The position numbers and the translations under genes were made by a program. From positions 1 to 46,437 of IMG/VR virus record IMGVR_UViG_2925903241_000005: a DNA stretch of 46,437 nt; one strand, 5' to 3'. Source of the stretch: a virus (Duplodnaviria > Heunggongvirae > Uroviricota > Caudoviricetes). Of the stretch, positions 37,000 through 40,149 are shown in pieces (position 1 is the first letter of the stretch; every line of letters begins with the position of its first letter). Under the pieces are notes generated by a model, which saw only the letters and a list, made by a program, of their open reading frames with translations, was not told the DNA's origin and made no database searches.

Positions 37000-37667
37000 G
37001 CGTTAGTTTCTCCACAACCAGAAGCAATCGACGCCACGACGCCCGGAGCTGCACACTCGCGGGCGTCATTACTTTCTGAAATGCAAAAAATTTTGTAGAC
37101 AAGTGCTGCATGCTCCTGCAGCTTCGAAATTGAGAGATACAGCTCGTCGTTAATTGCTGTCTTCTCATGCGGTTCCACTACACCGTCTTCGATTGCTGAA
37201 CGAATCTGTTTTGAATAACTGCCGATCTGTTCAATGACTTCCAGCAGACGCTGGTTAATATCGGCGTTGTCCACATCCTCGACGTCAGGAAGAGACACAA
37301 AGACGCCATTTGCAGACTGCGCCACAGCATCAGCAATGAAGTGAGTTCCACCAGCACGTTGCAAAATCATTGCCCATCCCAGCGGGAAAATCTGATCGCC
37401 ATCAGCACGAAGGCGGTTAAATAATGCGTTCTCTGTTACATCCAGCCAGTCAGCTGCTTCAGCGTAACCACCCGGCAACTTTGCGATAGTTTTTCTGACA
37501 GCTTTCACGTACCACTCAGGCTGTTTTTCTACTTTCCAGTGATGCTTACCCACGGTTAGCCTCATCGTTCTGTGGTTTCTGTTAATCGATTTATCCATTA
37601 GATTTTTCATAAAGCTCAGGTTTAAATGGCAACCGTCCGCAAGTTCTATATGCAGCTTCTGCTGCAC
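36996..37667 (-). CDS. CII-like / YdaT-like regulatory protein
   Basis: Position immediately after cro-like gene; start probably an internal Met (about 37598) to avoid a 77-bp overlap with cro. Family call is by synteny and weak recall. Confidence 0.35.
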
Positions 37668-37791
37668 GTCCTTTTGGAATTAACTGGCCCGGACGGTTTC
37701 GCCACTGATAAACGGCTTCAGTTGTTATGCCGAAAAAAGCAGCAACTTTCTCAATACTGCCGAAGTAGCTTTCGATATCGTCAGTTGTCAT
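37591..37791 (-). CDS. cro: Cro-like HTH regulator (YdaS-like)
   Basis: 66 aa, ..[30 protein letters not shown].. HTH; divergent from the repressor gene across an operator region. Confidence 0.6.
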   Translation of the reverse strand: MTTDDIESYFGSIEKVAAFFGITTEAVYQWRNRPGQLIPKGRAAEAAYRTCGRLPFKPELYEKSNG

Positions 37792-37888
37792 ACGCCCTCC
37801 AAACTAAGTTTTATTAGATGCTAATTACAAATCTATCTTTGGTCAATAAAAACTAAGATTACTTAGCAATTCAAGAAATGGTGCTCCT
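37792..37888. promoter_or_regulatory. OR-like operator/promoter region (pR and pRM) with CTAAG-N4-CTTAG palindromes
   Basis: Two 14-bp palindromes (CTAAGTTTTATTAG and CTAAGATTACTTAG) between divergent cro-like and cI-like genes. Confidence 0.45.
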
Positions 37889-38515
37889 ATGGAAACGGTT
37901 GGTCAGCGTATAAAAGCTCTGAGAAGAGTTACCAGAACGTCCCAGAAAGAATTGGGTAAATTTTGTGGAGTAAGCGACGTTGCTGTGGGGTACTGGGAGA
38001 AAGACATCAATACCCCTGGTGGGGAGGCACTTTCGAAATTAGCGAAGTTCTTCAATACGTCAATAGATTACATTCTTTATGGTGCTGAGTTTGAAGGCAA
38101 ACTCGTCACAAACATGCGCAGAGTTCCTGTAATATCGTGGGTTCAGGCTGGGCAGTTTACTGAGTGCAGGGCAGCAGAAGTGTTTAGTGAAGTGGACAAG
38201 TGGGTAGATACATCATTAAAGATTGGTGATAACTCATTTGCATTAGAGGTTAAAGGTGACTCCATGACTAACCCTAATGGCCTCCCAACAATACCAGAAG
38301 GCGCAACAGTGATTGTAGATCCAGATGCAGAACCTCGTCATGGAAAAATAGTCATCGCTCGACTTGATGGAACAAACGAAGCTACAGTAAAAAAATTAGT
38401 CATCGATGGCCCTCAAAAGTTTTTAGTGCCATTAAATCCTCGGTATCCCAACATCCCTATCAATGGTAATTGCCTTATCATTGGTGTAGTCAAAGGAGTT
38501 CAATACGAACTCTAA
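37889..38515 (+). CDS. cI: CI-type prophage repressor (HTH + LexA-like S24 autopeptidase domain)
   Basis: N-terminal HTH (..TSQKELGKFCGVSDVAVGYWEKD..) and C-terminal S24 motifs (..LEVKGDSMTNPNG.. Ser; ..TVKKLV.. Lys). Confidence 0.85.
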   Translation: METVGQRIKALRRVTRTSQKELGKFCGVSDVAVGYWEKDINTPGGEALSKLAKFFNTSIDYILYGAEFEGKLVTNMRRVPVISWVQAGQFTECRAAEVFSEVDKWVDTSLKIGDNSFALEVKGDSMTNPNGLPTIPEGATVIVDPDAEPRHGKIVIARLDGTNEATVKKLVIDGPQKFLVPLNPRYPNIPINGNCLIIGVVKGVQYEL

Positions 38516-38700
38516 GACCTCTCTTCTCTAACTAAGGCACCGAACTAAGAAAAGTTTGGTGTTTTCTCTTGCCATAATAACTAAGTTAAGTTAGATTTTA
38601 TGTCAAAGATAACGAACAGGCAGGACGCCCACGAAGTAGCCGCCGGTGGCGTATGAATGACCGGATGATTCGTTAAATACTATGTGTAAGAGAGCGCAAA
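38516..38700 (+). promoter_or_regulatory. OL/pL-like region with the same operator half-sites
   Basis: AACTAAGGCACCGAACTAAG and CTAAGTTAAGTTAG motifs; candidate -35 TTGCCA and -10 TAGATT with 17-bp spacing. Confidence 0.4.
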
Positions 38701-38902
38701 TGAACCGTTATTTCACATGCTCGTTTTGTGGCGCAAACGAGCTGCAGGCAAAAAAATCATCGCCAAAGGCGGAAAAGATGAAGTTGCTATCTGCTCTGAG
38801 TGCGTAGTCTTGTGTGTCGGAGCATTAATCAATATCAGCACAACTATTCAGTTCACACCAAATGAGAATGCGCCTTTAGATGCGCGGAAATCTGGAGGTT
38901 AA
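38700..38902 (+). pseudogene. ClpX-type C4 zinc-finger-like small protein, interrupted by a frameshift in an A7 tract
   Basis: One frame gives MNRYFTCSFCGANELQAKK; the +1 frame gives ..KKIIAKGGKDEVAICSECVVLC.. Joined they give CSFCG-x21-CSEC, like the ClpX N-terminal zinc finger. The switch is at 'gcaaaaaaatc'. Confidence 0.45.
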
Positions 38903-38910
38903 AGAACAAA

Positions 38911-39186
38911 ATGAAAGTCCAGATTTTAAACAATAGTGGTGAAGTCGTTTGGTCATACGACATAGCCGCTCCTGTAGATCAGAGCGGCGATAGCTGGACC
39001 AATGGGAAACATCAGATTATGGCTGGAGTTGTATTCTCTTTACACCGTGCTTTGGAACAGGCTGAAGTATTTCCATCAGACCCTGAATGGAAATGGCCTT
39101 TTTCTATTTGTCCAAATTCGGAGAGCACATTTCAGAAAATTGGTCAGAAAGTCGCACTCGAAGAGCATCAGCCAACTGTTTTCTGA
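38911..39186 (+). CDS. hypothetical protein (early-left operon)
   Basis: 91-aa ORF with a GGAGG RBS about 8 nt upstream; 3' end converges on a minus-strand ORF. Confidence 0.35.
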   Translation: MKVQILNNSGEVVWSYDIAAPVDQSGDSWTNGKHQIMAGVVFSLHRALEQAEVFPSDPEWKWPFSICPNSESTFQKIGQKVALEEHQPTVF

Positions 39187-39349
39187 TTTTTTCAGGTAAC
39201 TCGTCGGCATCGCAGAAACAACAACGCTCGATCATGTTGAAAGCCGATTCGTAGAACTGTTTCTGCTGAGTGTCGCTGAGACAGGAAAAGAGCGACGTTA
39301 CGATGATTTTATTAATTGCATTATCAAGTTCTTTTTCATCAAAAGTCAT
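39104..39349 (-). CDS. hypothetical protein (antisense to early-left operon)
   Basis: 81-aa ORF with AGGAAA RBS 7 nt upstream; protein-like composition; overlaps 38911..39186 by about 83 bp. Confidence 0.3.
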   Translation of the reverse strand: MTFDEKELDNAINKIIVTSLFSCLSDTQQKQFYESAFNMIERCCFCDADELPEKIRKQLADALRVRLSDQFSEMCSPNLDK

Positions 39350-39596
39350 TTGATTTTCCTTTTATGTATACGGGCTTAAAAGGATACCACCGAGCCTGAA
39401 GTGGTGAAAAGACAGGCACATAACAGCTAAGTATTTTCAACCAGAGAGAATCCTTAGCGTTGTGGTGAATGCGGCTCAGCGCACGCGGGTTAAGGTTGAG
39501 GCTGACAGTCGACCTTCTGTGGATACCCACCCGTCTGGTGTGCAACCTTCGCCAGGCACCGGGAGGCACCCGGCACCACAACTTTATGCTGTGTGT

Positions 39597-39649
39597 AGTC
39601 TTGGCGGTACCAGTTTGTACCCTTGCTTCCGGCTGGTACCGCTCTTTTT
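39597..39649 (+). ncRNA. dicF: DicF-like small RNA
   Basis: TTGGCGGTACCAGTTTGTACC... matches the remembered E. coli DicF 5' region (TTTGGCGGTATCAGTTTTAC) at about 15 of 16 positions; ends in a 10-bp perfect hairpin (GCGGTACCAG/CTGGTACCGC) plus TCTTTTT. Confidence 0.55.
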
Positions 39650-39768
39650 ACAAAACAGAGAAGAGCATCACCGGACGACGGGCTCATAACCCAATCCATC
39701 CGGGCGGCTGCCACCGCAGGTGTTCTTCTCTGTTTTGTGGAGAAACCAACCGACCTTGCAGGGTCGAT

Positions 39769-40149
39769 ATGATGAGGAGCAGCAAAATGGCTAGCGAACG
39801 CAGTACTGATGTGCAGGCATTTATCGGGGAGCTGGACGGCGGCGTATTTGAAACCAAAATCGGCGCAGTTCTCAGTGAAGTCGCTTCCGGTGTGATGAAC
39901 ACGAAAACCAAAGGTAAGGTCTCGCTTAACCTGGAAATCGAACCGTTTGATGAGAACCGTGTGAAAATAAAACATAAACTCTCATATGTTCGCCCGACTA
40001 ACCGCGGGAAAATTTCCGAAGAAGACACCACCGAAACGCCGATGTATGTCAATCGCGGTGGTCGCCTGACTATTCTGCAGGAAGACCAGGGACAATTACT
40101 GACTCTTGCCGGTGAACCTGACGGAAAACTCCGCGCAGCAGGTCATTAA
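39769..40149 (+). CDS. YfdP-like hypothetical protein
   Basis: 126 aa from the internal MMRSSKMASERS; upstream part of the 226-aa track ORF covers the structured RNA region; call rests on remembered YfdP-Q-R-S-T gene order. Confidence 0.4.
   Translation: MMRSSKMASERSTDVQAFIGELDGGVFETKIGAVLSEVASGVMNTKTKGKVSLNLEIEPFDENRVKIKHKLSYVRPTNRGKISEEDTTETPMYVNRGGRLTILQEDQGQLLTLAGEPDGKLRAAGH

Follow-up and report, generated by a model that had tools for sequence, protein, structure and literature searches.

A DicF-type terminator hairpin on an STnc100/PasD-type core in the early-left operon of a lambdoid prophage: a candidate composite small RNA

Introduction

DicF is the textbook prophage small RNA (sRNA) that stops host cell division. 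Its 53-nt form arises by termination and its 72-nt form by RNase III cleavage, with the 5' end made by RNase E; it is a proven Hfq-dependent trans regulator that uses its 5' end for xylR and pykA and its 3' region, the segment termed DicF9/DicF23, for ftsZ (PMC5069750). STnc100 and its PasD relatives have likewise been reported to be prophage-borne, Hfq-associated sRNAs (bioRxiv 10.64898/2026.05.13.724894; PMC12370729). Here we analysed a hairpin at positions 39597-39649 (+ strand) of a 46,437-nt stretch of DNA from a virus of the Caudoviricetes (IMG/VR record IMGVR_UViG_2925903241_000005, positions 1 to 46,437), called the window below, which a sequence-only reading had described as a DicF-like sRNA of about 50 nt. 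We propose, with a probability of roughly 0.6, that these 53 nt supply the terminator hairpin and U-tail for a composite RNA of ~190 nt (39459-39650), which would act in trans as an Hfq-type sRNA and in cis as an attenuator. The 5' module of this RNA (39459-39582) is a pseudoknotted STnc100/PasD core. The 3' module (39583-39650), consisting of an arm, the hairpin and U5, keeps the GGCGG...CCGCC scaffold and tail of DicF with a different 5' arm and loop.

While DicF and STnc100/PasD are already known, the joining of a DicF-superfamily tail with a different seed to an STnc100-type core is new, and so is the finding that the two families are repeatedly linked physically, in either order. A literature search for divergent DicF variants returned none; the term DicF-like was found only in the 2016 DicF paper, a study of copies that are >99% identical.

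The hairpin at 39597-39649 is an intrinsic terminator

The segment 39597-39649 (+) reads AGUCUUGGCGGUACCAGUUUGUACCCUUGCUUCCGGCUGGUACCGCUCUUUUU in the window. Its arms GGCGGUACCAG (39603-39613) and CUGGUACCGCU (39633-39643) are complementary and form a DicF-type terminator hairpin at 39603-39643, with a stem of 11-13 bp and a loop of 15-19 nt, UUUGUACCCUUGCUUCCGG; RNAfold lengthened the stem from 11 to 13 bp and left a 15-nt loop. The minimum free energy (MFE) of 39590-39655 was -24.6 kcal/mol, compared with -13.9 +/- 2.4 for shuffled sequences (z -4.39), and 0 of 200 shuffles were as stable. C plus U5 follow directly 3' of the hairpin (39644-39649). The resulting U-tract, CUUUUUA (39644-39650), whose T-run was invariant in alignments A1 and A2 (the latter is described below), is predicted to be the termination point and a likely Hfq-binding 3' tail. 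The terminator hairpin is real and lies where the sequence-only reading had placed it, and the strength claimed for it was borne out by the fold energy and the adjacent U-tract. A simple terminator scan of the window did not call the hairpin at 39603-39643, only because that scan accepts loops of 3-8 nt.

The 20 nt upstream of the stem (39583-39602, UUUAUGCUGUGUGUAGUCUU) were unpaired in the folds and form a single-stranded linker and candidate seed with a conserved block, GCUGUGUGUAGUC, inside it. The AU-rich beginning of the linker (39583-39590) is a plausible RNase E entry site. What had been taken for an element of about 50 nt holds as far as the hairpin and U-tract at 39597-39649 are concerned. 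It is not a free-standing gene, however, but the 3' terminus of a larger RNA whose match to Rfam STnc100 exceeds that to DicF.

The hairpin is a divergent relative of DicF and lies outside the curated family

A 16-nt block of the element, UUGGCGGUACCAGUUU, differs from K-12 DicF at one position, the common sequence being UUGGCGGUA[C/U]CAGUUU, i.e. UUGGCGGUAYCAGUUU. The sequence-only reading had taken it for a nearly identical DicF seed. The block instead forms the 5' side of the terminator stem (DicF nt ~14-29) and does not belong to the experimentally defined pairing regions of DicF; by itself it is weak evidence of kinship. We searched 661 nt (39300-39960) against 4227 Rfam families with Infernal. 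The Rfam DicF model (RF00039) matched 39590-39644 with 19.1 bits (E 0.14), whereas K-12 DicF scores 76.7 bits against the same model. The Rfam DicF assignment fails because 19.1 bits is below the curated gathering score of 48 bits, an outcome that the sequence-only reading had itself named as telling against a DicF-like sRNA.

The relation to DicF was recovered through a chain of intermediates. In the Qin prophage of K-12, DicF (76.7 bits) is followed 22 nt on by a copy of the STnc100-type core, just before dicB, and 33 of the sampled phage contigs show this order of DicF and then core as well. In these contigs the DicF slot, just upstream of the conserved core and dicB-like genes, holds graded variants: a K-12 type (UUUCUGGUGACGUUUGGCGGUAUCAG...), an L074/L016 type (CUGCUGUGUGUAGUCUUGGCGGCAUCAG...), an L089 type (...GUGUAGUCUUUGGCGGUACCAG...), further variants in L027, L057 and L119, and, in L021 and L080, a chimera that joins a GUGUAGUCUUUGG 5' arm to the 3' half of the K-12 type. 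The exact 5' arm of the window, GCUGUGUGUAGUCUUGGCGG, is present in several of these variants; window sequence AUGCUGUGUGUAGUCUUGGCGG is identical to the L074-type 5' arm over 20 nt, and the 5' arm is conserved in L027, L057, L089 and L119 while the loops diverge. Along the series the Rfam DicF score runs from 76.7 (K-12) through 61.1, 42.8, 38.1 and 29.2 to 19.1 bits in the window.

We then built a covariance model (R1) from 16 DicF-slot variants, none of them of the window type. Against both strands of the whole window, R1 matched 39586-39650 over its full length with 43.9 bits (E 2.8e-8), and the runner-up scored 12.7 bits. Over 936 kb of core-containing phage contigs, slot RNAs scored 58-78 bits and window-type hairpins 36-44 bits, and the many other terminators there gave no match. 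A chance resemblance to DicF is ruled out by this match and its specificity. In the 14-variant alignment A2, the stem was paired in 99.3% of pair cells and carried 3 compensatory pairs, including GGCGG/CCGCC versus GGUGG/CCACC. The C that the sequence-only reading had noticed in place of T, and had thought might shift the target range, is column 42 of A2; its partner is column 68, and the pair is C-G in 6 sequences but U-A in 5. Since the C is compensated by G on the 3' arm, and the same C occurs in the otherwise K-12-type DicF of contig L106, no shifted target range is implied. On the strength of the intermediates, the R1 match and its specificity, and the conservation of the stem, homology is well supported, and the sequence comparisons place the window hairpin as a divergent member of a wider DicF superfamily, outside the curated Rfam family; the kinship with DicF suggested by the sequence-only reading is in this sense upheld.

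An STnc100/PasD-type core forms the 5' module

The Rfam STnc100 model (RF02076) matched 39429-39651 with 44.3 bits (E 2.6e-8) across model positions 1-206 of 206, 2.7 bits short of its gathering score of 47 bits. The Rfam match, the MFE fold and covariation delimit a structured core at 39459-39582 (+) in which the full STnc100/PasD architecture is present. It comprises the closing stem P1, GUUGUGGUG (39459-67) with CACCACAAC (39574-82); a conserved AAU (39468-70); hairpin P2 (39471-86); a pseudoknot, AAGGUUG/CAACCUU (39492-98 and 39543-49), joining the segment that follows P2 to the loop of hairpin b, the penultimate hairpin (39534-40 with 39550-56); and the invariant CCGGGAGGCACCCGG hairpin P5, CCGGG-AGGCA-CCCGG (39559-73). 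Variable inserts lie between P2 and hairpin b.

Cores were retrieved with the pattern CACCNGGARGCACCNGGCAC from at least 120 IMG/VR contigs, giving 106 distinct cores. The common core type passes the STnc100 gathering score (57-161 bits) and often stands in tandem arrays next to phage tRNA genes. Stem P1 covaries among the cores (GCAUGGUG/CACCAUGC, GUUGCGGUG/CACCGCAAC, GCUGCUGUG/CACAGCAGC) and reaches 14-20 bp in Qin-type loci. RNAalifold, applied to 29 representatives of <80% identity, recovered P1, P2 and P5 with 9 covarying pairs. The Watson-Crick run of the pseudoknot had a median of 6 bp when both halves came from the same sequence versus 3 bp between sequences (p 1e-13). The core measured ~105-150 nt, with near-invariant GGUGAAU and CACCGGGAGGCACCCGGCAC motifs, and homologues were seen in phages of E. 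coli, Salmonella, Cronobacter, Klebsiella and Actinobacillus and in phage P1.

The locus compared with dicBF, STnc100/PasD and phage P1

Like DicF in the dicBF region of K-12 Qin, the window RNA lies in the repressor-proximal early-left operon of a lambdoid prophage, carries a large-looped GGCGG...CCGCC terminator hairpin ending in a U-tail, and adjoins an STnc100-type core; in both loci a long duplex of ~20 bp, a suitable substrate for RNase III, comes next. The two differ in that the 5' arm is UUUCUGGUGAC in DicF and GCUGUGUGUAGUC in the window, that the ftsZ-pairing loop and 3' arm of K-12 DicF are replaced, and that the window hairpin is perfectly paired. The order is also reversed: the module lies downstream of the core in the window (core, then hairpin) and upstream of it in Qin, and the next gene is yfdP instead of dicB. 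Thus the dicBF-type placement, after ydfABC-like genes and directly before the core and dicB, is absent, while the window and Qin agree in the type of operon and in having the core next to the hairpin.

With STnc100/PasD the window RNA shares the closing stem, GGUGAAU, the P2 hairpin, the invariant CACCGGGAGGCACCCGGCAC hairpin, a terminator ~20 nt past the core and carriage by a prophage. Its P2 is of the GCGGCUNAGCGCACGCGG type found beside DicF and not of the CCCCCUNNGCGGNGGGG type. Unlike many STnc100 copies, which by eye start at +1 of a sigma70-type promoter, it showed no promoter directly upstream in the promoter scan; its core is a single copy in the early-left operon, whereas typical STnc100 forms tandem arrays near Q, tRNA and stx genes; and its DicF-type 3' module is unlike any sampled STnc100 terminator. 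Identity with PasB was rejected, as PasB sits in a structural-gene operon.

The ban operon of phage P1 (NC_005856) has an annotated dicF-like region at 68791-68892 and a separate core at ~70077-70200. As in the window, a repressor-controlled early operon holds DicF-locus-related RNA sequence and the same core, whose closing stem covaries (GUUGCGGUG/CACCGCAAC); here, however, the core stands ~1.2 kb further on, ahead of tciA, and lacks a DicF-type tail. The dicF-like region of P1 (L006) was seen to match not DicF but the structured leader upstream of DicF in Qin (GCGCGGCGGUAAG...GGUUGACCAU...), and an unrelated terminator ends it. In contig L021 (4744-5234), four RNAs follow in a row: DicF (61 bits), an STnc100-type core, isrK (65.5 bits) and a C4 antisense RNA (77.9 bits).

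The put RNAs of lambdoid phages HK022 and HK639 are structured, ~70-126 nt long, and lie downstream of early promoters and upstream of terminators. Homology of the core to such antiterminators was rejected: the HK022 immunity (pL/pR) region gave no STnc100 match at E<=10, and the annotated HK639 putL-like RNA is without the core motifs. In Qin, moreover, the core lies after the DicF terminator and not before it. The put RNAs may still offer a remote functional analogy for the core.

The element lies in an early-left operon

A promoter scan found a pL-type early-left promoter, TTGCCA-17-TAGATT, at 38569-38597 (+), presumed to be the source of transcripts reaching the element 0.9-1 kb downstream. 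Upstream of it, a LexA/cI-type repressor gene (37889-38515, +) faces a cro-like gene (37591-37791, -). AACTAAG operator-like repeats lie between these two genes and again at 38529-38596, where they overlap the promoter; repeat D1 has one copy at 37802-37819, within the cro/cI intergenic region, and another at 38579-38596. Downstream of the element, yfdP (39787-40149, +; phrog_204), named from the RefSeq/SfV annotation of identical DNA, is the first gene of yfdP-yfdQ-yfdR...xis-int. The pL-type promoter, the operator-like repeats, the cI/cro arrangement and the downstream yfd...int genes confirm the early-left (pL) location that the sequence-only reading had given, here in an operon of the SfV/e14-like lambdoid prophage kind. 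For yfdP to be expressed from pL, transcription must pass the terminator.

On the + strand between 38600 and 39460, upstream of the core, the promoter scan detected no sigma70-like promoter. An N-like antiterminator was sought between pL and the element, and only PHROG matches of unknown function were obtained. The same interval holds, at 39104-39349 (-), an 81-aa gene (phrog_3311) antisense to the early-left transcript, which overlaps the 3' end of a 91-aa ORF on the + strand (38911-39186) by ~80 nt.

Just past the terminator, a domain at 39648-39739 (+) is closed by a perfect 22-bp stem (39648-39669 with 39718-39739) that begins inside the U-tract, encloses ~48 nt and can form only in read-through transcripts, where it is a candidate RNase III site. 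The MFE of 39648-39790 was -56.3 kcal/mol (z -4.8). In Qin, the end of 72-nt DicF falls within the ~20-bp closing stem of the neighbouring core.

Proposed mechanism and the evidence against it

The composite RNA may work as follows. Transcripts from pL would stop at the U-tract of the terminator. Those that read through would fold the 22-bp stem at 39648-39739 and, by analogy with 72-nt DicF, be cut there by RNase III, which would separate the sRNA from the yfdP mRNA. The 5' end would be trimmed in the AU-rich linker (39583-39590) or at stem P1, as RNase E does for DicF, leaving an RNA of ~60-65 nt. Judged by its relatives, this RNA may bind Hfq through the hairpin and U-tail and pair with mRNAs through the conserved GCUGUGUGUAGUC arm, possibly also the loop. 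In cis, the hairpin would act as an attenuator ahead of yfdP...int.

Several results weigh against this proposal. The element scores below the gathering scores of both the DicF and the STnc100 model, and a whole-window Rfam scan at gathering scores returned 0 matches. A search of the window for the complement of the seed found the element itself as sole match and no target, and a literature search for the seed sequence returned unrelated papers only. In a 20-nt-window energy test, even the validated K-12 DicF-ftsZ pair was not separable from shuffles. Recent common descent, instead of selection, could account for the conserved 5' arm. Lastly, the minus-strand 81-aa gene and the failure of the scan to detect a promoter directly upstream of the core make the origin of the transcript uncertain.

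In a rival reading, the hairpin is solely a cis-acting intrinsic terminator or attenuator between the early-left leader and yfdP...int; its likeness to DicF would come from a common terminator cassette that lambdoid prophages exchange by recombination, and the 3' fragment, once released, would have no trans role. We regard this as unlikely, though it deserves to be taken seriously: the terminator features are the sole properties directly shown, the element stands where a tL-type terminator is expected, the block in common with K-12 DicF is a stem arm, and neither the window search nor the ftsZ energy tests found a target. Against it stands the unpaired GCUGUGUGUAGUC arm, which is not needed by a terminator alone and yet is kept between window-type and DicF-slot RNAs despite their different loops, 3' arms and positions relative to the core. 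Moreover, DicF, a relative of the hairpin, is a proven trans regulator that depends on Hfq and derives from such a terminator (PMC5069750), and STnc100/PasD relatives were recovered as Hfq-bound sRNAs (bioRxiv 10.64898/2026.05.13.724894).

ftsZ is not a predicted target

The sequence-only reading had expected the RNA to pair with ftsZ and block cell division. As a functional DicF orthologue, the window RNA would pair with the ftsZ ribosome-binding region and block division on prophage induction. Such a role is suggested by the homology to DicF seen in the R1 match, the operon of the same type and the large loop, and the short-window duplex energies with the ftsZ leader were as good for the window RNA as for K-12 DicF (-19.6 and -19.2, respectively); these energies were, however, no different from shuffles for either RNA. 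Over the full length, K-12 DicF formed a duplex of -38.5 kcal/mol with ftsZ -60..+30, matched by 4% of shuffles, whereas the window RNA reached -29.7 kcal/mol, which 92% of shuffles equalled. As the energy tests are uninformative, the argument rests on the loss of the mapped segments. In a computed duplex, nt 33-52 of K-12 DicF, UCCGUGACUGCUCUGCCGCC, pair with ftsZ -28..-7, including the ribosome-binding site. The ftsZ-pairing 3' segment UCCGUGACUGCUCUGCC is replaced in the window RNA by unrelated sequence, and the 5' seed for xylR and pykA, UUUCUGGUGAC, by AUGCUGUGUGUAGUC. Because the DicF segments that serve ftsZ and xylR/pykA have not been kept, ftsZ is not predicted as a target, nor is a division block through it, and the expectation was not borne out. 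Together with the Rfam DicF score of 19.1 bits against a gathering score of 48, this makes a functional DicF orthologue improbable.

Distribution and annotation

The same 301 bp are 97-100% identical in SfV, SfII, SfIV, SKA5 and other phages, and 2777 of 5426 complete E. coli genomes carry the sequence. None of these records carries an RNA annotation: the region is unannotated or called a pseudogene, and on identical DNA RefSeq/PGAP gives a frameshifted hypothetical-protein pseudogene over 39462-39772 (L003 3063-3373). Several phage records also call hypothetical proteins over the element, likely a systematic mis-annotation in thousands of genomes. That the region encodes a protein, either a 75-aa ORF (39462-39689) from the window ORF list or the frameshifted product of 39462-39772, with the hairpin incidental, is hardly credible and was rejected, since in spite of the PGAP call and the hypothetical proteins of those phage records the 75-aa ORF has no PHROG family, the annotated frame needs a frameshift, the indels and compensatory pair changes of homologues preserve RNA helices and not a frame, and the region matches the STnc100 RNA family over its full length.

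If the composite RNA is expressed and bound by Hfq, it would be a widespread prophage regulator found in about half of E. coli genomes, and it would link DicF and STnc100/PasD, sRNA families treated apart until now. Of note for annotation pipelines, the composite is missed by both Rfam models at their gathering scores. The curated DicF family covers only one branch of a wider set of RNAs, the others keeping the scaffold and swapping the pairing segments. A bolder and rather doubtful extension is that DicF is an interchangeable cassette of seed and terminator which, in lambdoid and P1-like phages, is joined upstream or downstream to a pseudoknotted core of ~125 nt, itself often closed by stems long enough for RNase III; the core would then be a new RNA class, for instance a host-factor-binding module or a processing or antitermination module controlling the release and stability of the attached sRNA and the expression of downstream genes, and the window would hold the first recognised DicF-type tail with a new seed on such a core.

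Additional features of the early-left leader

An ORF for a C4 zinc finger resembling the ClpX N-terminal domain (CSFCG...ICSECV..C) occupies 38682-38902 and is split over two frames at an A7 run (~38746-38752). Its phrog_5259 match aligns only from profile position 23, and a frameshift, a slippery site or an error in sequencing may explain the split. Closer to the core, 39386-39417 may form an H-type pseudoknot, in which ACCAC/GUGGU interleaves with GCCUG/CAGGC, with ACAUAACA after it. In L074, L057, L080 and L106, the leaders upstream of the DicF-slot RNAs begin with the same motif, whose stem 2 covaries, GCCUG/CAGGC versus GCCCGG/CCGGGC.

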